NCBI GenBank assembly: GCA_019056805.1
Contig: DXJG01000002.1
Span: 154,178-218,177 of the forward strand
Direction of reading: 5' to 3'
Length of the DNA stretch: 64,000 nucleotides
Origin: Candidatus Baldrarchaeota archaeon
Lineage (GTDB): Archaea; Asgardarchaeota; Baldrarchaeia; Baldrarchaeales; DXJG01
Part shown: positions 1 through 44,225 of the stretch, piece after piece
Layout of the letters: every line of letters starts with the position of its first letter
How positions within the stretch are numbered: the first letter of the stretch is position 1
The notes under the pieces: generated by a model
Told to the model about the DNA's origin: nothing
Database searches by the model: none
The model's input: only the letters and a program-made list of their open reading frames with translations
Made by a program: the position numbers and the translations under genes

Positions 1-994
1 GAAATATAACTATCAATAATAGCTGTATATTTGCCAGGCATTGCTATTTTTACGGTTTCGTTGTACGTTTTGAATTTTTCTACGACTTGTTTCCAGCTTT
101 CAAGCGAAGGAGTACGATTTTGGAGATTTAAAATTCTAGATAAATATTCTCCAAGCCCCTGTTCCTCAAAAAGAAGCGGTAATTCGTAAATACAATCAGT
201 ATCAGGGTTTGAAATTACAGCTTCAACGGGTACATTACAATATAGACTAATTTTTTCTCTTATTTTTTGATCAAGAGGAATTTCAGCCCTACCAACAATA
301 ACATCAGGTTGAAGTCCCATGCCTTGGAGAACTTTAACACTATGTTGAGTAGGTTTTGTTTTGAGTTCTCTAACAGTCTTAAGGAATGGGAGAAGAGTAA
401 CATGTACTAATGCGGTATTTTCTCTAGGTTCTTCTAATCGAAATTGTCTTATAGCTTCGAGAAAAGGCATGGCTTCTATATCTCCTACAGTCCCCCCTAC
501 CTCAACAATCAATATATCTGGATTCTCTCTCTTAGCAACTTCCCTAATCCTGTTTTTTATTTCATCGGTAATATGTGGTATTATTTGAACAGTTTTACCA
601 AGATATTCTCCAACTCTTTCACGAAGAATAACCGATAAGTAAACCTGTCCACTAGTAATATTATTGCATGGATGAATATTTTTATCTAAAAATCTTTCAT
701 AAGTCCCAAAATCTTGATCAATTTCGGATATTCTAAATTTAAAACCATCAGCTGGTGTGAATTCCCAAACATCTTCAGTTACAAAAACCTCCCCATGTTC
801 GATTGGATTAAGAGTACCTGGGTCAACATTCAAATTCCCCCACGGCTAGAAATACTCTAGCCGCGTTAGGGGTCGATTTTTATAGCATCAACACTAAACC
901 CTCTAAATTGGAAAAGTTTGGCAATCGAAGCAACAGTAACACCCTTACCAATACCAGACATAACTCCTCCTGTTATAAATATGTATTTTGTCAA
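1..994 (-). CDS. pyrG: CTP synthase, partial (C-terminus beyond window start). Two exons: 867..994 (TTG start, [18 protein letters not shown]...IKIDPY) and <1..834 ([21 protein letters not shown]...), interrupted by a 32-nt BHB-type element at 835..866
   Basis: Minus-strand translation gives the PyrG N-terminal P-loop region and continues with [21 protein letters not shown]... The two segments are in different frames. Removing 835..866 joins them in frame as KIDPYLNVDPGT, the conserved CTP synthase motif. Confidence 0.85.
835..866 (-). other. Candidate bulge-helix-bulge (BHB) intron in pyrG mRNA
   Basis: In the mRNA sense the region folds as h (UCGA/UUGA, 4 bp), H (CCCC/GGGG, 4 bp), a 3-nt bulge UAA, a 10-bp stem (CGCGGCUAGA/UCUAGCCGUG) with GUAUU loop, and a 3-nt bulge AAU. 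Cleavage 2 nt into each bulge removes exactly 32 nt and restores the frame and the DPYLNVD motif. Confidence 0.6.
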
Positions 995-7510: not shown

Positions 7511-8977
7511 TTAACCCTTGGTAACTCCCATTGGAACCATTCTTGCTACGAGAGTAGCAATACCTAGTTTGTGACTAACTTTAACAACTCTGTCAATATC
7601 TTTATATGCACCTGGAGCTTCTTCTGCAACTACCCTGATATTTGCAGCTCTAATTAATATTCCTCTTTGCTCCAAATCCTTTTTCACTGTAGAACCCCAA
7701 TAACGTCGAGTGGCAGCAGCTCGTGATAAGTGTCGCCCTGCACCATGGGCAGTACTGCCAAAAGAGATCTTCATAGCCTGTTTTGCTCCAATTAGCAAAT
7801 AACTAGCAGTACCCATACTTCCGGGAATCAGTACGGGTTGACCCATGCTTCTATAGTCAGCAGGAATATCTTTGTGTCCCGGTGGAAACGCCCTAGTAGC
7901 ACCTTTTCTATGAACAAATACTTTAACCTTCTTTCCATCGACATCATGTTCCTCTAATTTCGCTATATTATGGGCTACATCATAAATCAAATGTAAATCT
8001 AAGTCTTCAGCATCTTTTCTGAATATTTTTTGAAGAGCTTCTCTTGTCCAATGAGTTATTAGTTGTCTATTTGCCCAAGCAAAATTAGCTGCGCACTGCA
8101 TTGCTTGAAAATATTGTTCAGCTTCTTTGCTATTTGCTGGTGCACATGCCAATTCTCTATCTGGTAGTTTTATTCCATACTGGTGTACTGCTCTTTCCAT
8201 AACTCTGAGATAATCAGAACATACCTGGTGACCAAAACCTCTAGAACCTGTATGAATCATAACAGTTACTTGTCCTTCTTCATATATACCAAGTTTCTTG
8301 GCTACTTGAGGATTATAAATCTTATCTACATACTGTATTTCGAGGAAATGGTTTCCACTTCCTAGAGTTCCAAGTTGTGGTCGTCCTCTTTGTTTAGCTC
8401 TTGAAGATACTACATCTGGATTCGCATTCGGCATTGCCCCTTCTTCTTCGCAATGTTTCCAATCCTCATCCCAACCATATCCCTGTTCAACAGCCCATTT
8501 TGCACCACCTTGCATTGCTTCATCCAGTTCGGCAGTTGATAGCCTTAACTTTCCAGTGCTTCCCACTCCGCTAGGAATATTTCTGAATAAAGCTTCCAGA
8601 AGTTGAGGTAAGATTTTACGTACCTCATCTTTTTTCAAATTTGTTCTTAGTAATCTTACACCACAATTAATGTCGTAACCCACTCCACCTGGTGAAATTA
8701 CACCTGTTTCTAAATCACTTGCCGCTACTCCCCCTATTGGGAATCCGTATCCTTGATGTCCATCCGGAAGAACTATGCTATACTTGTAGACTCCCGGAAG
8801 ACATGCAATGTTTGCTGCTTGTTCTAATGTTAAATCTGTTCTCATTTTTTCTAGTAAAAATTCATCTGCATAAATTCTCGCTGGTACACGCATGCAATTC
8901 TTGTAAGTTCGTGGTATTTCCCATACGAATTCATCTATCTTTTCGATAGGCCCTCTATAACCCATTTTTTTCACCAT
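7511..8977 (-). CDS. rtcB: RNA-splicing ligase RtcB (3'-phosphate/5'-hydroxyl tRNA ligase)
   Basis: RtcB motifs (GSGNHF, metal-binding His/Cys). The ORF extends to 9061, but the start was adjusted to MVKKMGYRGPIEKID by comparison with the family N-terminus. Confidence 0.85.
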   Translation of the reverse strand: MVKKMGYRGPIEKIDEFVWEIPRTYKNCMRVPARIYADEFLLEKMRTDLTLEQAANIACLPGVYKYSIVLPDGHQGYGFPIGGVAASDLETGVISPGGVGYDINCGVRLLRTNLKKDEVRKILPQLLEALFRNIPSGVGSTGKLRLSTAELDEAMQGGAKWAVEQGYGWDEDWKHCEEEGAMPNANPDVVSSRAKQRGRPQLGTLGSGNHFLEIQYVDKIYNPQVAKKLGIYEEGQVTVMIHTGSRGFGHQVCSDYLRVMERAVHQYGIKLPDRELACAPANSKEAEQYFQAMQCAANFAWANRQLITHWTREALQKIFRKDAEDLDLHLIYDVAHNIAKLEEHDVDGKKVKVFVHRKGATRAFPPGHKDIPADYRSMGQPVLIPGSMGTASYLLIGAKQAMKISFGSTAHGAGRHLSRAAATRRYWGSTVKKDLEQRGILIRAANIRVVAEEAPGAYKDIDRVVKVSHKLGIATLVARMVPMGVTKG

Positions 8978-28495: not shown

Positions 28496-29242
28496 CTATT
28501 TTTGTGTTTTTAGAAATTTTTCAAAGCGTTTTGCATCTTCACCCATGTATATATTGTTAAATAATATGTAAATATTCTTTACGGGTAAAAGTGTTATTTT
28601 AGAAGCTAAATATTTGAAATCTTCCAAAGAATATTTATATTTATACATTTTTTTGCCAGGAGGGGAACCATGAAGCCTAAAATATGCAGTGTCTTCAATA
28701 AAATGTTGGGGGTCCTGCGCAAAGGGGTCAACTACATGTATCAAGCTTAGTTTTTCACAAATTTTTTTAATTAAATCAGGAGTCCAGCTTTTTCCTCTAG
28801 GTTCCCAACCAATAACTATATTATCCCTTTCAATGGAAGTGAAGAATTCAGTCATATTTTTTAAGTTTTCTTCTTCCGGTTTAAATTTCGCTGGAGTTTG
28901 CATTATGCATATTTTGCTTTTTAGAGTTTTACATATTTTCTTTGTGGTTTCCCATGCTTCAAACACTTCATCGGTAGGTTTAAAAAAACCGTATCTTTCT
29001 CTTTTTTGTTCCGATATATCTAATCCAGCTTTTTTATATGTTGGTGAGGTTGCGGGATGAGTTATTAATTGCCATGCCTTCACTACAAATTCAAAGTCCT
29101 CGGGAGCATTTTTTCGCCATTTTTCAAGTGTATCAAGTTTTGGAGGCTTATAAAATGTTTTTTGAACCTCAACAAGTTTAAATTCTTCAAAATATTTTTT
29201 CATACCACCTGGAAAACCACAACAACCAATTTTAATATTCAA
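28496..29242 (-). CDS. DUF72 family protein
   Basis: DUF72-like conserved segments (YGFF.., RLHG). Apparently co-transcribed downstream of the small GTPase gene. Confidence 0.6.
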   Translation of the reverse strand: MNIKIGCCGFPGGMKKYFEEFKLVEVQKTFYKPPKLDTLEKWRKNAPEDFEFVVKAWQLITHPATSPTYKKAGLDISEQKRERYGFFKPTDEVFEAWETTKKICKTLKSKICIMQTPAKFKPEEENLKNMTEFFTSIERDNIVIGWEPRGKSWTPDLIKKICEKLSLIHVVDPFAQDPQHFIEDTAYFRLHGSPPGKKMYKYKYSLEDFKYLASKITLLPVKNIYILFNNIYMGEDAKRFEKFLKTQK

Positions 29243-29244
29243 TG

Positions 29245-29772
29245 CTAATAGCCTCCAAAACTAGTTTCATATATAAACTTTGCAAGTTTGAAGAAAACAT
29301 CATTAACATTCTCACCTGTTTTTGCACTGGTTCTGTGACAAGGTATCTTAAGCTGCTCTGCAAGCCTCTTTTCTTCAGCTACACTAACCTTACTTTTGTT
29401 TGCTAAGTCTATCTTATTTCCTACCAAAAGTAAAGGAATTTTTCCACAATACTTTTGAATTTCATTAAACCAGCTTTTTAAATTTTTAAAGCTGTCCTTG
29501 TTTGTTACATCATAAACTAAGAGTCCACCAGCAGCCCCCTTATAATAAAGAGGTCTTAATTTTCTAAAACGTTCTTGACCTCCTGTATCCCATATTTGCA
29601 ATTTCACAGGTTTTCCTATGCCTAGATCTACATGTTTTGTTGCTAAATCCACCCCTATAGTCATCTTATAATTTTCAATGAAATATCCATGAGCAAAACG
29701 AACTGTTAAGCTGGTTTTTCCAACACCAGCATCTCCAACAACAATAACCTTAAACAAATAAACTCCAGCCAT
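29245..29772 (-). CDS. Rab/Ras-like small GTPase
   Basis: G1 GDAGVGKT, switch I TIGVD, G3 WDTGGQERF, G4 GNKIDL and G5 SAK. 175 aa. Confidence 0.85.
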   Translation of the reverse strand: MAGVYLFKVIVVGDAGVGKTSLTVRFAHGYFIENYKMTIGVDLATKHVDLGIGKPVKLQIWDTGGQERFRKLRPLYYKGAAGGLLVYDVTNKDSFKNLKSWFNEIQKYCGKIPLLLVGNKIDLANKSKVSVAEEKRLAEQLKIPCHRTSAKTGENVNDVFFKLAKFIYETSFGGY

Positions 29773-29900
29773 TATGTAAACCTCTAATTTCCTAAAAATA
29801 TTTCAACAGAACAATATAAAATTGTTTTTGATAAGTAAAGATTTTCACAAAATTTTTTATAATAACTTCATGAAAATATTAATGGTTAATATCTTTACGT

Positions 29901-31265
29901 CTAAGCAGCTTTGATGAATTTTTCCTCGTACTTTCGTAGAAACTCAGAAGTTTCCTTGATATCCGAGAACAATTTTCGTACTCGTTCAATATCATCAATA
30001 CTTACTTCCCTTCTGCCTTCTTCCTTTGCATTCACAGCCGCTGGTGTGATCAGAAGAGATGCAAATCTCAAAGAACTTTCTACAGCAATGTCTGCTAGTT
30101 TTTCTAAAGCATCCTTGTTAAGTTCCACACCTTCGGCTTTTGCTCTTATTTTTAAGATCTCTATTACTTCTTCTCGAGAATATGGCCTAGTACAGATGAT
30201 TAGAAGTCTGTCTAAGAAGTCTAGCGGCATTCCCATTGGAGATACATAGTCGGTTCCTCGTATTTTCGTTACTCCACGGTTTGTAGCTAAGATTATAATT
30301 GGTGCTAGTTCACTTTCCATCGCTCGTGTAAGAAATGAAAATGCTTCCAAATCTAAGAGACTTGCTTCATCAATGAATAACACTCCTGGGAGAATCTCTG
30401 CTTTTCCTTGTTCGACCCATTCTTTCACCATCTCATCGACTTGTTCTCTGATTTCTGGGTCAATTTCTTTTTCTTCTCTTCCACCAAAGAACAAAGAAAG
30501 CAAAGTACCACTTGATCTCCTTGCTGTCATTTCATCTAGGTCGTTTAAAGTGACTGTGTAAACAAATTCTTTTTCTTTTAATATTGGCCCTGATGGTACC
30601 GGAATTATACGTTCAGCTTCAATATCGTAAGTTTTTTCTCTTTCGGCACTGCGTCCAAGTCTGGTTACCCTTCCTGTTTCAGCATCTATCATTATTATAT
30701 CACCTTCTGAGATTCCCTGATTTATTAGTTGCATTGCTACACTTTGTCCTACTTCAAAGGTCTTTGTTTCACTTTTTGTTCTTAATGTAATCCTAGCTGA
30801 TTCTGGTATTTGCATATAGGGATTGTAGGGGTTCCTAGTCATTTTTATATTCAGACTTTTCACTTCTCCTTCGTAGATTTTTCTTAGTTCATGTATTCTG
30901 ATTCCAATGGATTTTCGCATAGCGCTCATAAGAATTTCTGTCTTTTTCTTCTCTTCACTATAAATTTCACTGCCAGCAATCATTACAAAGGGTACATCTT
31001 CACCTAACTCTTTTGCAATCGCGATGGCAATTGCAGTTTTACCTGTCCCAGGTGGCCCGGCTAGAAGAACAGCTCTTCCAGCCATTTTTCCTTCTTTAAT
31101 CATATTAACTATTATACCAGCCGCTTCTCTTGCTTCAGTTTGTCCTACCATTCCATCTGCAATAAGTTCAGCTTTTAAATTTTTTAATCCGAGGCCTTTA
31201 ATATGGCTATGGGCACCAATTCTTTCAAATCTGCCTGGTCCACGAACTTCCCGAATTTCCGTCAC
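29901..31265 (-). CDS. RuvB-like AAA+ ATPase (TIP49/RuvBL family)
   Basis: N-terminal IGAHSHIKGLGL, Walker A motif GPPGTGKTAIA, the inserted OB-like domain II, and Walker B ahead of ..VLFIDE.. Size is that of a TIP49 homolog. Confidence 0.8.
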   Translation of the reverse strand: MTEIREVRGPGRFERIGAHSHIKGLGLKNLKAELIADGMVGQTEAREAAGIIVNMIKEGKMAGRAVLLAGPPGTGKTAIAIAIAKELGEDVPFVMIAGSEIYSEEKKKTEILMSAMRKSIGIRIHELRKIYEGEVKSLNIKMTRNPYNPYMQIPESARITLRTKSETKTFEVGQSVAMQLINQGISEGDIIMIDAETGRVTRLGRSAEREKTYDIEAERIIPVPSGPILKEKEFVYTVTLNDLDEMTARRSSGTLLSLFFGGREEKEIDPEIREQVDEMVKEWVEQGKAEILPGVLFIDEASLLDLEAFSFLTRAMESELAPIIILATNRGVTKIRGTDYVSPMGMPLDFLDRLLIICTRPYSREEVIEILKIRAKAEGVELNKDALEKLADIAVESSLRFASLLITPAAVNAKEEGRREVSIDDIERVRKLFSDIKETSEFLRKYEEKFIKAA

Positions 31266-31599: not shown

Positions 31600-31740
31600 G
31601 CGATATGCGGATAGTATGGAGGAAGGAGATAAAAGGGTGAGAGGCTCCGTCAACGTGTGAGTAGGTCTCCCCCCTCCTCCCCCTCGCCACTGATATCACG
31701 CATTTGTGGCGTGTTTCTGTTTTTTGACGGGGCCCGCCAA
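31600..31740. ncRNA. GC-rich intergenic island (candidate structured RNA or 5' leader)
   Basis: A purine-rich tract (GGAGGAAGGAGAUAAAAGGGUGAGAGG) followed by a CU-rich tract (UCUCCCCCCUCCUCCCCCUCGCC) that can pair with it, then a hairpin CACGC-AUUUGUG-GCGUG. It lies 55-190 nt upstream of the 31795 gene. Confidence 0.3.
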
Positions 31741-31794
31741 ACTTTAATTTACTACTTTTAACATTTTTATCACAATAATTCGGAGGTTCTGATC

Positions 31795-38634: not shown

Positions 38635-41600
38635 TTGAAAGCGATGTTTAAGCATGCTTGCCCGAATTGTGAAGGTAAAATTTCTGATGAAAGATTAGCT
38701 ATGGGAGTACCATGCGAAAACTGTCTGTCTATAGATATTAATCAACTAAAAAACCTATGTTCAAAAATGAATCCCTTGGAATTTAAAATAAAAATTCTGG
38801 ACATTTTAAGGGCTCAAGGAACACTAAAAAAGTATTATGAACTTGTTAAAATCGAAAAAGAATTGGCCGAGTTTGAAGATTTATTTAGAAAGGGAACTGG
38901 AAGCAGGCTTTGGAGTGCACAGCGAGAGTGGGCAAGAAGAGTCTTAAAAGGGGTAAGCTTTGCCATAACCGCTCCCACGGGCATAGGTAAAACAGTATTT
39001 GGAATGACTATGGCCATATATCTAAGCACTAAAGGCAAAAAATCCTATATTATTCTCCCCACAACAGTACTTGTTAAGCAGACACTAGATAGAATCAAAG
39101 AGTTTTTAGAAAAAACAGGAATTCAAATTAAGGTTGCTGGTTATTACGCCAAACTTTCCAAGGATGAAAGAGAAGAATTTAAGCATATGGTTGAAACTGG
39201 AGACTTTAATATACTTGTTACAACTTCACAATATCTTGCATTAAAATTTGACGAAGTATCAAAACATAAATTCGATTTTGTATTCGTTGACGATGTAGAT
39301 GCGCTCCTTAAGTTATCAAAAAACATCGATAGAGTTTTGTTACTATTAGGGTTCAGCAACGAAGCTATTAATCTAAGTTTAAGATTAATAAAATTAAAGA
39401 AAGCGTATGTACGAGCAAGAGCAAATGAAATAGATAAAATAGAACACGAAATAGAAGAAATAACAGAAAAAATAAATTCTCTAAAAGAAAAAACAAAGCC
39501 GGGAACATTAATAGTCTCCACTGCAACTGGTAAAGCAAGAGGCGATCGAGTGAAGTTGTTTAGAGAGTTGTTAAACTTTACAATCGGGTCAGCAAGTGAA
39601 GGTTACAGAAACGTTCAAGACCTTTATATTCCAAGAGAAAGAAACGTAGAAGAACAGTTACATGCATTAGTTAAAAAACTAGGAGCAGGTGGAATTATCT
39701 TTGTCACACTCGAAGAAGGAATAGATTTTGCTGAAAAAATCGCCAATTTTCTAAATGAAAGGGGAGTTAAAGCTGAAGCTTTCCACGCAGGCAAGAAAAG
39801 CCCTGAAATCATAGATCAGTTTTCTAATGGTGAAATAGACATACTTATTGGGGTTGCAAGTCATTATGGACTTTTAGTCAGAGGTCTTGATCTACCACAT
39901 CGCGTACGCTACGCTATTTTCACCGGGGTTCCAAAATTCAAATTCAGCTTAGATGTTAGCGAAGAAACCAGTCCAACAAGAATATACATGCTTCTATCCG
40001 AAATATCAGAATACTTACCCAGCGAGGAAAAAGAAAAAGCCGAAAACTTTCTCAGGAAAATCAGACAATACTTAATGAGACTAACACCAACACAGTTACA
40101 ACAAATTAGAGATGCACTAACTGCCAAAACAAAAATAAATAATACATATCTTCAAAACATCTTAGACCTCTATGTCAACGTCATAAATTTTGTTGATTCC
40201 ATGCTTAAAAGAAAAGACATTCTTGATAAGATAAGAGAAAGTCCATTTATATCTCTAGAAAAAATAGACGAAGAACTCTATATACTAATACCAGATGTAA
40301 GAACCTACATTCAAGCTTCGGGAAGAACATCGAGATTATTTGCAGGAGGAGTAGCTAAAGGGATTTCAATACTCCTAGTAGATAATGAAAAGATCTTCAA
40401 CGGTCTTGTAAGGCAACTAAGATGGAGATTCGAAGAAAGCGAATGGAAACATCTAAACGAAGTAGACCTAACTTCGCTACTTAAAGAAGTCGATGCCGAC
40501 AGAGAACTTATTTTAAAAATTAAACGAGGAGAAATAACGATAGAATTAAAAGACCCAGTAAAATCAGCACTTCTCATAGTAGAATCTCCAAGTAAAGCAT
40601 TTACTATTTCCACATTTTTCGGCAAACCAGCAAGAAGAAGATTACATGGATTACCAGTCTACGAAGTTGTAACTGGAGATTTAGACTTAAACGTAGCTGC
40701 AAGCGGAGGTCATATTTTTGATCTAGTTACTGAAGAAGGGTTCCACGGTGTGATGACCGAAAACGGGGTTTTCATACCAATATATACAACAATAAAAAGA
40801 TGTATGACATGCAGAGAACAATTTGTAGAAGATGTAGACAGGTGTCCACGATGTAAATCCACAGAAATAAAAAACTCCCTAGATAATGTAAAAGCACTAA
40901 GCGAAATAGCCTCTGAAGTAGATATAATCCTTATAGGAACCGATCCAGATTCTGTTACGGGAGATTCAGAAGTTTTGGTGAATTTAAATGGAAAAGTATT
41001 CCTATCTAGGATCGACGAACTATTTGAAAGATTAAAGAGTTCAAAAGAATTTTACTTTTTCACTAAGAGAAATCATGAATATCTTGAACCAAAAGATAAT
41101 AGTTATTTAAAAGTATTAGGAGTTGATAAGCACTTTGACACTCGATGGGTAAATGTAAATTATTTCATTAGGCATAAAGTTCAAAAAGAAATTTATGAAA
41201 TCGAAACAGCAACAGGCAGAAGTATAAAAGTGACTGGAGACCACTCCTTATTTACACTTAAAGATTTCCAGCTTCAAGAACTTAAAATAAGCGAAATTAA
41301 AATCGGAGATATGTTAGTAGTTCCACGAAGACTGGTATGTAATGAAAATAGTCTTGAATATATTGACATTTTAGATTTTAAAGACTTAGGTGCGAAAAAA
41401 GTAGACGAAAAACATGTTAAGATTGGAAAAAGTAAACCTATACCAAGATACATAAAGCTTGATAAAATTTTTCTCGAGTTTCTCGGTCTATGGATAGGTG
41501 ATGGTTCATTCCACAAAGATAGATATGTACGCATTTCTGTCATTGATAAAGAGTCAAGAAAAGTTGTAAAGGAAATAGCTAAGAGATTCGGAGCAAAGAT

Positions 41601-43629
41601 ATATGAAGAAAAGGACAATGCAACACTTACAATAATGTCAAGGGCTCTTTACCTTATTTTAAAGAAAGTTTTCGGTTTAAAGCATGGTGCAGGTTCAAAA
41701 GAAGTTCCATCTATAATTTTTTCTCTTTCTAAAGAACAAATATCAGCTTTTCTAAGAGGATACATCAGTGCTGATGGTACTGTGTCTAAAGGAGAACCTA
41801 ATTTTTCAACAAAATCCAAAAAACTCTTTGAACAACTTAGAACGCTATTTCTAATGTTAGGAATTGTGGTTAAAAAATACGAAGATAACGGGGTTCTTAG
41901 AGGATTTATCCATGCAGAGTGGATATCCGATTTCATAAATAAAATTGGCTTTCTTCAGGAAAGTAAAAATAGTAAGATAACTCCTAAGAAAGGAATAAGG
42001 AATTACATAGATGTATTTCCCGTGGAAGGGTTAAAAGGATGCATTAAGACGAATCCCAGTTATGCAGAGGCAATATATAGATCTGGGATAATGGGAAGAC
42101 GGAGATTGGAGAACTTTTTGCCATTTATAAAAAATGAAACATTGAAAGAGACTGTTAAAAGCGTTCTAAATTCGGATATTATGGTCGAAAAAGTTGTTAA
42201 AATTAGAAAAATAGAAAAATTTAATGATTATGTTTATGATTTTGATACGGAAACTGATAACTTTATAGCAAACAATATTCTCGCCCATAATACCGAGGGG
42301 GAGAAAATTGGTTGGGATATAGCTACTGTCTTATCACCGTATGCGCACCAAATTAAACGTGTAGAATTTCATGAAATAACAAAAATGGCGATTAGGAATG
42401 CGCTTGAAAATCTTAAAGAAATAGATGAAAACAGAGTATCAGCACAACTGGTACGTAGAATAGAGGATAGATGGATAGGTTTCGAGTTAAGTAGACGTCT
42501 TTGGCAAAGATTTCGGGATTATCATCTCTCTGCAGGCAGAGTTCAGACCCCGGTTTTAGGTTGGATAATAGAAAGATATAAGGAATTTCTAAAAAGTTGG
42601 AAATATGTTTTCTGGGTGAAGCTATCAAATCAATACATAGTGGAGCTCAGAGATCTTGGGGGAAAGCCTTACGAGATTGCTGAGAAACTTCGCGGTTCAG
42701 ATGTTAAAATTATATTCCTTGAGGAAACTTTAGAAGATTTGAATCCACCTCCACCATTTACAACTGATGAAATGTTGAGAGAAGCATCAAGACTCTTAAA
42801 ATTCGGTGCACAAGAAACTATGATTCTTGCACAAGCGCTTTTCGAATCCGGTCTAATAACTTACCATAGAACGGATAGTCACCGAGTAAGTAATGTAGGA
42901 ATAAGAATCGCTAAGGAATACATAACTCAAGAAATTGGTGAAGAGTATTTTCATGCAAGAAAATGGGGAACAGAGGAAGAAGGAGCTCATGAATGTATCC
43001 GTCCAACACGTCCACTAAACGTGGAAAGACTAAGAACTCTAATAGAGGAAGGAGTAATAAAAACAGCAGAAACAATGACATGGCAACACTACAAACTATA
43101 TCAACTCATATTCAACAGATTTATTGCAAGCCAAATGACACCTGCGAAAATAAAAAGAATGAAGGCAAAAATAAAGTTCAATGAAATAGTTGAGACTGAA
43201 ATAGAAGGAATTACAGAAATAGTTGAACCAGGATTTACAACGATACAACCAATAAAAACGATACCCAAATTAAAAGAACCACTAAGCGTAGTTGATGTTA
43301 AATTCAAAAAAATACCAACAATAAGTCTTTATACGCAAGGAGATATTGTTGAACTCATGAAAAAGAGAGGAATAGGAAGACCATCTACGTATGCAACAAT
43401 AATACAAACATTACTTGAAAGAGGTTATGTAGAAGAGAAAAACAAAATGTTAAAACCTACAAAACTGGGAATCAAAGTATACGAGTACCTATCAAAATTT
43501 TACAGCAACTTAGTATCAGAAGAAAGAACTAGAGAACTGGAAAGAAAAATGGAAGAAATAGAAGAAGGAAAGGTAAATCATCAACAAATCTTAAAGGATC
43601 TCTACCAGGAAATAAAAAGTCTCAAATGA
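38635..43629 (+). CDS. rgy: Reverse gyrase (helicase plus topoisomerase IA) carrying an intein
   Basis: N-terminal Zn finger, SF2 helicase motifs (APTGIGKT, DDVD), the TOPRIM motif TDPD//TEGEKI split by an insert, and topo IA domains. 1664 aa total, 1217 aa without the insert. Confidence 0.9.
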   Translation: MKAMFKHACPNCEGKISDERLAMGVPCENCLSIDINQLKNLCSKMNPLEFKIKILDILRAQGTLKKYYELVKIEKELAEFEDLFRKGTGSRLWSAQREWARRVLKGVSFAITAPTGIGKTVFGMTMAIYLSTKGKKSYIILPTTVLVKQTLDRIKEFLEKTGIQIKVAGYYAKLSKDEREEFKHMVETGDFNILVTTSQYLALKFDEVSKHKFDFVFVDDVDALLKLSKNIDRVLLLLGFSNEAINLSLRLIKLKKAYVRARANEIDKIEHEIEEITEKINSLKEKTKPGTLIVSTATGKARGDRVKLFRELLNFTIGSASEGYRNVQDLYIPRERNVEEQLHALVKKLGAGGIIFVTLEEGIDFAEKIANFLNERGVKAEAFHAGKKSPEIIDQFSNGEIDILIGVASHYGLLVRGLDLPHRVRYAIFTGVPKFKFSLDVSEETSPTRIYMLLSEISEYLPSEEKEKAENFLRKIRQYLMRLTPTQLQQIRDALTAKTKINNTYLQNILDLYVNVINFVDSMLKRKDILDKIRESPFISLEKIDEELYILIPDVRTYIQASGRTSRLFAGGVAKGISILLVDNEKIFNGLVRQLRWRFEESEWKHLNEVDLTSLLKEVDADRELILKIKRGEITIELKDPVKSALLIVESPSKAFTISTFFGKPARRRLHGLPVYEVVTGDLDLNVAASGGHIFDLVTEEGFHGVMTENGVFIPIYTTIKRCMTCREQFVEDVDRCPRCKSTEIKNSLDNVKALSEIASEVDIILIGTDPDSVTGDSEVLVNLNGKVFLSRIDELFERLKSSKEFYFFTKRNHEYLEPKDNSYLKVLGVDKHFDTRWVNVNYFIRHKVQKEIYEIETATGRSIKVTGDHSLFTLKDFQLQELKISEIKIGDMLVVPRRLVCNENSLEYIDILDFKDLGAKKVDEKHVKIGKSKPIPRYIKLDKIFLEFLGLWIGDGSFHKDRYVRISVIDKESRKVVKEIAKRFGAKIYEEKDNATLTIMSRALYLILKKVFGLKHGAGSKEVPSIIFSLSKEQISAFLRGYISADGTVSKGEPNFSTKSKKLFEQLRTLFLMLGIVVKKYEDNGVLRGFIHAEWISDFINKIGFLQESKNSKITPKKGIRNYIDVFPVEGLKGCIKTNPSYAEAIYRSGIMGRRRLENFLPFIKNETLKETVKSVLNSDIMVEKVVKIRKIEKFNDYVYDFDTETDNFIANNILAHNTEGEKIGWDIATVLSPYAHQIKRVEFHEITKMAIRNALENLKEIDENRVSAQLVRRIEDRWIGFELSRRLWQRFRDYHLSAGRVQTPVLGWIIERYKEFLKSWKYVFWVKLSNQYIVELRDLGGKPYEIAEKLRGSDVKIIFLEETLEDLNPPPPFTTDEMLREASRLLKFGAQETMILAQALFESGLITYHRTDSHRVSNVGIRIAKEYITQEIGEEYFHARKWGTEEEGAHECIRPTRPLNVERLRTLIEEGVIKTAETMTWQHYKLYQLIFNRFIASQMTPAKIKRMKAKIKFNEIVETEIEGITEIVEPGFTTIQPIKTIPKLKEPLSVVDVKFKKIPTISLYTQGDIVELMKKRGIGRPSTYATIIQTLLERGYVEEKNKMLKPTKLGIKVYEYLSKFYSNLVSEERTRELERKMEEIEEGKVNHQQILKDLYQEIKSLK
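40951..42291 (+). mobile_element. Intein (447 aa) with LAGLIDADG homing endonuclease domain inside the reverse gyrase TOPRIM motif
   Basis: Begins with Ser after TDPD and ends with HN before TEGEKI. Contains LAGLIDADG motifs LGLWIGDGSF and LRGYISADGTVS. Confidence 0.8.
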
Positions 43630-43670: not shown

Positions 43671-44225
43671 TTAAGCTCTAAACCACGTAAATACGTAATA
43701 TATCGGTTTACCGTCAGGACTTATTGTTGATATTATGAATTTCTTTCTCACGGTAGTTGCAAGTCTACCGGATCTCACTATTTCTAATGCAGAAAGTTTC
43801 GAGTTCATCGGTAAAACATGAACTAAGAAAGGGGCGTGATCAATTCCAGGACCATGCTCATAAACAGCAAAATCAGCACCAAACTTCATTCCAGGCCGAA
43901 CAACATATCCTTTCTCCCTAAGATCTTTATACACTATGTATTTTTCCTCAAATTTTTCGTGAATTTTTGACGCAATTTTCTTAAATTCTTCAAATGTTAA
44001 TTCACGGTTCGTCTCCGCATCTATTAAAATAAGTCTATTCTTTTCCATTAAATATAACGCTTCTAAAAAAGATAGTTCTAAAGGCTTATTGAAACTAGGG
44101 GCTTTCGGCTTTCTGATTCCAAGAGGTTTACCATAAAATCCTTCAGCATAAAGTTTTGAGCCTTGTTCAGGATTCCAAACGACAACTCTACTTCCAAGAA
44201 ATTCTCCTCGAATCTTTTCCGACAT
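43671..44225 (-). CDS. endA: tRNA-splicing (BHB) endonuclease
   Basis: 184 aa. The C-terminal catalytic region (GADFAVYE..HAPFLVHV..) is typical of archaeal EndA. Confidence 0.75.
   Translation of the reverse strand: MSEKIRGEFLGSRVVVWNPEQGSKLYAEGFYGKPLGIRKPKAPSFNKPLELSFLEALYLMEKNRLILIDAETNRELTFEEFKKIASKIHEKFEEKYIVYKDLREKGYVVRPGMKFGADFAVYEHGPGIDHAPFLVHVLPMNSKLSALEIVRSGRLATTVRKKFIISTISPDGKPIYYVFTWFRA

Follow-up and report, generated by a model that had tools for sequence, protein, structure and literature searches.

How can an active cytidine triphosphate (CTP) synthase be made from a pyrG gene whose reading frame is broken by 32 extra nucleotides (nt)? This question was raised by one end of a 64-kb stretch of DNA (64,000 nt, hereafter the window) from contig DXJG01000002.1 of a Candidatus Baldrarchaeota archaeon, where a small G+C-rich element at positions 866..835 splits pyrG on the minus strand. 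Our analysis indicated that this element is very likely a bulge-helix-bulge (BHB) intron within the coding sequence of the pyrG mRNA, which would be excised by the tRNA-splicing endonuclease EndA and sealed by the RNA ligase RtcB.

The break in the pyrG reading frame

Direct reading of the minus strand agreed with the position and the 32-nt length that an earlier interpretation made from the letters alone (hereafter the sequence-only reading) had assigned to the element splitting pyrG. Exon 1 (867..994, minus strand) started at a TTG codon (994-992) with GAGGTG ahead of it, comprised 42 codons together with the UA of a Tyr codon, and encoded the nucleotide-binding loop (GGVxSxxGKG). Exon 2 (1..834, minus strand) continued past the start of the window. 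Between the two exons lay the predicted intron (835..866, minus strand, 32 nt, ACGCGGCUAGAGUAUUUCUAGCCGUGGGGGAA), which was in phase 2 within the Tyr codon. Read along the minus strand, the sequence across the break was ...AAAAUCGA CCCC UAA CGCGGCUAGA GUAUU UCUAGCCGUG GGGG AAU UUGA AUGUU.... The length of the insert was not a multiple of 3, and its G+C content was 56% compared with 35% for the window. The frame-0 translation of pyrG ended at a UAA right after ...KIDP, the first intron base completing the stop codon, which bore out the earlier claim that unspliced translation stops at a UAA 3 nt into the element.

Deletion of 866..835 produced a 320-codon open frame that reached the edge of the window, and the spliced product matched Pfam CTP_synth_N over model positions 1-265 of 265 (E = 4.6e-113). 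As the sequence-only reading had proposed, cuts placed 2 nt into each bulge of the predicted fold removed exactly this segment and put both halves into a single frame. The join after these canonical cuts was GAC CCC UA/U UUG AAU GUU (here and below, a slash within a sequence marks the cut or junction), giving DPYLNVDPG. When cut registers from -3 to +3 were tried, only register 0, which follows the canonical BHB rule, and register -1 rebuilt this motif; all other registers put Asn or a stop at the Tyr position. The pattern DPYLN[VI]D[PA]G was found in 117/117 full-length homologues retrieved, and the only three sequences lacking it were truncated gene calls of the same clade. The spliced coding sequence comprised 550 codons in the Logan contig L083, which was identical to the window, and 556 codons in two relatives. 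The predicted junction of the spliced RNA reads GACCCCUA/UUUGAAU, or GACCCCTA/TTTGAATGTTGA in DNA letters, and its predicted sequence variants read GACCCTTA/TTTGAATGTCGA and GACCC[CT]TA/TTTAAATGTTGA. The excised 32-mer, if closed into a circle, would carry the back-spliced junction ...GTGGGGGAA/ACGCGGCTAG....

Public gene calls (JGI, ENA, Logan and NCBI) split pyrG into a CTP_synth_N fragment of 31 or 42 amino acids (aa) and a 507-aa protein that begins at the UUG just past the intron. The same split was seen in the insert-bearing contigs L081 (2840-2968 and 3001-4524), L082, L083 and L084. Judged against the predicted spliced product, the 507-aa database proteins P0001-P0003 are N-terminally truncated annotation artefacts. 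Automated pipelines thus misannotate intron-bearing pyrG, and would score the pathway as damaged.

Predicted fold of the element

The element had been described as a canonical hBHBh' motif, and for its geometry this description held. Both the minimum-energy and the centroid structures calculated with ViennaRNA for 820-886 of the minus strand corresponded exactly to the hBHBh' layout, with the BHB motif at 830..876 (all of its parts on the minus strand). Helix h paired 876-873 with 833-830 through 4 base pairs (bp; U-A, C-G, G.U, and A-U), and the central helix H paired CCCC (872-869) with GGGG (840-837), also through 4 bp. The two bulges, UAA (868-866) and AAU (836-834), were 3 nt each, and the 10-bp stem h' (865-856 with 850-841) was capped by the 5-nt terminal loop GUAUU (855-851). 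Cuts after the second base of either bulge are predicted between 867 and 866 and between 835 and 834, and these rule-defined sites fell exactly on the boundaries of the 32 nt that intronless orthologs lack. The fold energy was -24.1 kcal/mol (z = -3.78), and 0/200 dinucleotide shuffles were as stable. Helix H and stem h' were kept in the predicted folds at 60-85 C in all four sequence variants of the insert described below.

With a covariance model, no second copy of the motif was detected in either the window (run with filters off) or 87 loci, and a metagenome scan for the intron core returned matches in pyrG only. Because no further copy was found by either approach, the pyrG intron does not appear to be a dispersed mobile element. 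Other genes interrupted by BHB motifs were also sought in the window. A loose test, in which excision had to fuse two frames, yielded only noise. A stricter excision test gave 13 candidates, among which pyrG alone was convincing; the other 12, judged from their coordinates against the list of open reading frames (ORFs), were weak motifs joining neighbouring genes or off-frame ORFs.

Occurrence of the insert in related genomes

A genome scan with the spliced protein yielded 80 species-representative loci. The DPYLN motif was uninterrupted in 78 of them, and the remaining two, L001 (JAGGSW010000075.1, Candidatus Odinarchaeota archaeon AUK032) and L002, carried a 31-nt insert at the same codon. 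The nearest relative, Candidatus Baldrarchaeum yapensis (L003, 78% identity), lacked the insert and read GACCCTTATCTCAAC at this place. The gene order alaS-purA-pyrG-nurA was common to intron-bearing and intronless loci, so L003 is a positional ortholog. Alignment of the pyrG orthologs therefore supported the earlier reading of the element as an insertion, kept at one codon in related genomes and lacking at the syntenic locus of Ca. Baldrarchaeum yapensis.

A look-up of the 507-aa proteins added more insert-bearing contigs, which belonged to a JGI sample of the Guaymas Basin, to an ENA assembly from a hydrothermal vent, and to two run assemblies of Logan. The environments of these contigs were Guaymas Basin sediment (JGI 3300003332) and the hydrothermal-vent project PRJNA312413; for the AUK032 genome, the isolate name alone suggests Auka. 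The metagenome scan for the intron core added three contigs, each with its match in pyrG. In all, at least 10 independent contigs (NCBI, JGI, ENA, and Logan) from related Asgard genomes, which were Baldrarchaeia, some of them labelled Odinarchaeota, had the insert at this codon. The pyrG proteins of named Odinarchaeia, O. yellowstonii among them, are full-length and span the entire query, implying that no such intron is present. The alanyl-tRNA synthetase (AlaRS) and neighbouring genes also placed the window in Asgard, with the best named matches of AlaRS being Baldrarchaeia at 82%, Lokiarchaeia and Jordarchaeia at 64% or less, and Odinarchaeum yellowstonii at 48%. The most likely reading of this distribution, and the most parsimonious, is that an ancestor of a Baldrarchaeia-like sub-clade of Asgard acquired the intron in a single event.

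Clade labels in the databases were inconsistent. L001 is called Odinarchaeota AUK032, whereas close relatives (P0132 and P0251) of the AlaRS (82%) and of a deacylase encoded in the window (66%) are labelled Baldrarchaeia or Baldrarchaeota.

Four variants of the insert were found, two of 32 nt (the window and L081) and two of 31 nt (L001 and L002). The differences among them clustered in the terminal loop, which was GUAUU, AGGUU, AUUCGC, or UUUG. Across the four variants 97% of the pair cells were paired, including 16/16 cells in helix H; the bulges were invariant and stem h' had 9-10 bp. Three pairs were altered on one side, one between C-G and U.G, one between G.U and A-U, and one among A-U, G.U and an A.C mismatch. 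One pair of helix h was compensatory, changing from C-G to U-A through two synonymous substitutions.

Selection on pyrG

The ratio of non-synonymous to synonymous substitution rates (dN/dS), calculated by the Nei-Gojobori method on the spliced coding sequences, was 0.03-0.04 for the whole gene. The synonymous rate (dS) reached 1.2-1.5 when the two sub-groups were compared, and was 0.43 for the closest pair. In exon 1 taken by itself, relatives showed 9-20 synonymous versus 0-4 non-synonymous differences. By these substitution counts, both pyrG exons are under strong purifying selection. The intron stems were almost invariant although synonymous sites were near saturation. That the stems were retained on this background points to selection acting on the RNA structure, and a pseudogene, which had been named at the outset as an alternative, is ruled out.

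Predicted enzymes for cleavage and ligation

The sequence-only reading had placed both enzymes of the tRNA-splicing pathway in the window, and Pfam searches confirmed them. A catalytic alpha-type EndA subunit of 184 aa was encoded at 43671..44225 on the minus strand (Pfam tRNA_int_endo_N and tRNA_int_endo). Its best match among solved structures was 3P1Z_B, chain B of the Aeropyrum pernix heterotetramer (1.4e-44). The segments FAVY, IDHAPF, and VRKKF aligned residues with the positions of the catalytic Tyr, His, and Lys; the His position was identified from the entry 3AJV, apparently a His-to-Ala mutant, which has Ala there. No gaps interrupted the alignment over the Crenarchaea-specific loop, with K39 and K41 opposite APE K44 and R46. 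This loop, notably K44, gives broad specificity that includes relaxed motifs (PMC3241643), and Asgard EndA has been reported as an (alpha-beta)2 enzyme with the L1 loop (PMC5829648). RtcB, a 3'-phosphate RNA ligase, was encoded at 7511..8977 on the minus strand with a likely ATG at 8977, and matched the full Pfam RtcB model (1e-182). EndA is thus the predicted cleaving enzyme, and RtcB is predicted both to join the exons and to circularise the intron.

Proposed splicing of the pyrG mRNA and its alternatives

In the proposed mechanism, the central 4-bp helix would be made by the four C's of the Asp-Pro codons and the GGGG at the intron's 3' end, in the way that a tRNA anticodon loop pairs with its intron, and the remainder of the intron would fold into the G+C-rich 10-bp hairpin. 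An (alpha-beta)2-type EndA would cut at UA/A and AA/U, leaving 2',3'-cyclic phosphate and 5'-OH ends. RtcB would then join the exons to ...GAC CCC UAU UUG AAU GUU... (DPYLNVDPG) and probably circularise the excised 32-mer. With its UAA completed by the first base of the intron, the unspliced mRNA would give just a 42-residue peptide. Owing to this stop, an active CTP synthase from this gene would depend on splicing.

Several points weigh against an intron spliced in this way. Geometric BHB motifs are common by chance. A scan for motifs of 4/4/4 bp gave about 120 in the window, and dinucleotide-shuffled sequence gave about 3 per window at an h' of at least 8 bp and about 0.5 at an h' of at least 10 bp. 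Geometry alone is therefore insufficient, and the significance of the motif comes from its coincidence with the gene break, the exact repair of the codon, and the conservation. Helix h is the weak part of the canonical description. It has 4 bp with one G.U in the window, carries an A.A mismatch in L001 (3/4 paired) and two wobbles in L081, was predicted only for the window sequence at 37 C, and was absent from the predicted folds of all variants at thermophilic temperatures (60 C and above). With so weak a helix h, the 3' cut site would rely on an enzyme that tolerates a relaxed motif. Modelling of the folds suggests that the relaxed H-B-h' form is probably the functional motif, with strict geometry and relaxed stability, and such a core suits the broad-specificity (alpha-beta)2 type of EndA encoded here. 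The beta subunit of EndA was not seen in the 64-kb window. Covariation was weak, with 331/500 shuffles reaching the observed score; four variants are too few to make it informative, and the structural argument rests instead on conservation versus saturated synonymous sites. No full-length 550-aa protein at about 100% identity, such as a spliced cDNA would encode, was found in the protein collection, which held just the 507-aa truncated calls. Finally, we infer cleavage, ligation, and circularisation in vivo from the DNA sequence.

It is improbable that the locus is instead a split gene, whose 42-aa peptide and 507-aa protein, the latter started from the UUG at 833, are translated separately and associate without RNA splicing. 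Gene callers predict exactly these two ORFs, a G-rich run (GGGGG) stands just upstream of the UUG, and purifying selection on both pieces would also be expected of a functional split protein. However, the break falls within the invariant DPYLN motif, so that the Tyr present in all retrieved full-length homologues would be lost, and the GGVxSxxGKG loop would be parted from the rest of its domain. No more than 3 nt separate the GGGGG run from the UUG, and the run is tied up in helix H. A split gene would also leave unexplained why the bulges (3 nt each), helix H (4 bp), and the stem were conserved while synonymous sites saturate, and why canonical BHB cuts exactly regenerate the ancestral codon.

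EndA could also cleave the transcript without subsequent rejoining, as a down-regulator of pyrG mRNA, or the gene could have been inactivated recently; both are quite improbable. Decay of mRNA initiated by the tRNA endonuclease TSEN exists in yeast (PMC10485636), and the spliced pyrG product is so far only predicted. Without ligation no active CTP synthase would come from this locus, yet dN/dS stayed at 0.03-0.04 over a dS of more than 1. The exact restoration of frame and codon would serve nothing, and RtcB ligates EndA products generically.

Translational recoding, with ribosomes that frameshift or, like those on phage T4 gene 60, hop across the 32 nt, is very improbable. The stop codon beside a stable hairpin does resemble known bypass signals, but two lineages have an insert of 32 nt and two others one of 31 nt, so that the frame of exon 2 relative to exon 1 differs, and a stop lies inside the insert in the exon-2 frame. 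Moreover, take-off and landing codons that match are missing, and no hop can make UAU from a Tyr codon divided as UA/U.

That the insert arose from faulty assembly or sequencing, or that pyrG here is a decaying pseudogene struck by a small palindromic mobile element, is hardly credible: although the insert is a near-perfect inverted repeat, a shape possible for assembly errors and for elements like miniature inverted-repeat transposable elements, the same or a variant insert was present in the at least 10 independently assembled contigs from differing samples and pipelines, which disposed of the assembly error considered earlier, it was single-copy in the window and confined to pyrG in the 87 loci and the metagenome scan, and both exons are under strong purifying selection.

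A self-splicing group I or II intron was rejected, since the element has 32 nt versus a ribozyme core of hundreds of nt and no Rfam family matched the window at gathering thresholds.

A second candidate element and the genomic context

The BHB scan also pointed to a G+C-rich island of about 105 nt (31636-31748, plus strand), located upstream of an AstE/AspA-family deacylase gene and past a TIP49/RuvB-like gene. Counterparts were found in L088 (2330-2473), L089 (2327-2469), and L090 (2327-2469) in the same gene order. The island was identical at about 90% of columns in four lineages, whereas the neighbouring protein was just 66-85% identical and the rest of the AT-rich gap was, by eye, poorly conserved. 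RNAalifold folded the island into a 4-bp helix and a 9-bp stem, with a 3-nt bulge between them on the 5' side and AAA after the stem, which is the same H-B-h' layout as in the pyrG intron. Its elements were a GGUG/CGCC helix, bulges AGA and AAA, and a stem of 9-11 bp, and two one-sided changes kept the 4-bp helix paired. Canonical cuts would free 31642-31740, a 99-nt RNA with a CCCCCCUCCUCCCCCUC tract. The island matched no Rfam family. On this modelled fold, it may be a BHB intron in a 5' untranslated region (5'-UTR), comparable to HVO_1309 of Haloferax, or a circularised non-coding RNA. Whether this Asgard lineage routinely uses EndA and RtcB on non-tRNA transcripts, with the 31642-31740 RNA as another substrate (5'-UTR intron or circular RNA), is a tentative suggestion that we consider possible and rather doubtful.

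The TIP49/RuvBL-type AAA+ gene (454 aa, 29901-31265, minus strand) was identified by homology with the called genes of L088-L090 and is eukaryote-like. Genes of Arf/Ras-family small GTPases adjoin it (28496-31265, minus strand; likewise by homology with L088-L090), which fits an Asgard origin. A reverse gyrase ORF of 1664 aa (38635-43629, plus strand) contained an intein, with Pfam Intein_splicing and LAGLIDADG_3 between the Toprim and topoisomerase domains. Reverse gyrase is a marker of hyperthermophiles and suggests such a lifestyle for the host. The window thus holds an intervening sequence at the protein level, the intein, together with a putative one at the RNA level. ARAGORN found no tRNA gene in the window, although intron-containing or split archaeal tRNAs could be missed by it.

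Comparison with known systems

The sequence-only reading had held that known archaeal BHB introns in protein-coding genes are essentially limited to cbf5 in some Crenarchaeota. That such introns are very rare was upheld; among mRNAs cut by EndA, the intron in the 5'-UTR of HVO_1309 of Haloferax is also known (PMC10485636, PMC7714728). These two, with cbf5 in Desulfurococcales and Sulfolobales, were the EndA-processed archaeal mRNAs recognised in reviews up to 2023, one of which considers further cases likely (PMC10485636, PMC7714728, PMC2738675). No prior description of a BHB or mRNA intron in pyrG or CTP synthase, or in Asgard or Odinarchaeota, was found in the literature searched, which was mostly open, so an earlier report is possible. 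The pyrG element is very probably the first case of a predicted EndA-type mRNA intron in Asgard archaea and in pyrG. If true, it would be the third EndA-processed archaeal mRNA, and its intron would interrupt the coding sequence for an essential metabolic enzyme.

The cbf5 intron of Crenarchaeota (Aeropyrum and Sulfolobus; Watanabe 2002, Yoshinari 2006, Yokobori 2009, PMC2738675) resembles the pyrG intron in being short, located in protein-coding sequence, bounded by a BHB, and often relaxed. Many cbf5 introns have a relaxed motif, which gives weight to a broad-specificity EndA (PMC2738675), and the hosts of both introns have a hetero-tetrameric (alpha-beta)2 EndA with a specificity loop. Both also have a patchy distribution, implying lineage-specific gain or loss. 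Functional Cbf5 protein needs exon ligation (PMC10485636), and the same is predicted for pyrG. In contrast, pyrG encodes a metabolic enzyme and cbf5 an RNA-modification enzyme (pseudouridine synthase), the hosts are Asgard versus Thermoproteota, the sequence and the site are unrelated, and splicing is a prediction for pyrG. Judged from sequence comparison, the pyrG intron is like the cbf5 intron in its predicted working and is outside the cbf5 intron lineage, since gene, site, sequence, and phylum differ. The conservation of its stems up to synonymous saturation would indicate that mRNA introns of the BHB type can persist under selection.

The 5'-UTR intron of HVO_1309 in Haloferax volcanii belongs, as the pyrG intron would, to an mRNA cut by EndA and not to a tRNA or rRNA (PMC7714728; PMC10485636). 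Unlike pyrG, it lies in an untranslated leader and leaves the reading frame uninterrupted, the EndA of its host is of the alpha'2 type, and its processing was shown by CRISPR interference knock-down and in vitro cleavage. The archaeal tRNA intron at position 37/38 has the same topology as the pyrG element, in which the 5' exon and the 3' end of the intron form a 4-bp helix, the bulges are 3 nt, and the cut falls past the second bulge base; either strand has the order 5'-H(4)-bulge(3)-outer helix. The 31-32 nt of the pyrG intron fit the range of 11-175 nt of tRNA introns (PMC2738675), and EndA and RtcB would act on both. The pyrG intron differs in its mRNA host and in helix h, which consists of codons (AUC GAC and UUG AAU) and falls well short of an anticodon stem in strength. 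The pyrG motif offers a clean 47-nt substrate for the specificity of Asgard EndA.

If the pyrG mRNA is spliced as predicted, CTP synthesis in these archaea would depend on their RNA-splicing capacity. In eukaryotes, XBP1 and HAC1 mRNAs also undergo excision of a very short intron (26 nt in XBP1) by protein enzymes and independently of the spliceosome, with a change of the reading frame. The ends generated there are a 2',3'-cyclic phosphate and a 5'-OH, which are joined by RtcB in metazoans. Different from pyrG are the endonuclease, which is IRE1, the twin 7-nt stem-loops in place of a BHB, and the regulation by stress. Should this Asgard lineage indeed use EndA and RtcB routinely on non-tRNA transcripts, RtcB-type mRNA splicing, as in XBP1 and HAC1, would already have been a layer of gene expression in the closest archaeal relatives of eukaryotes.

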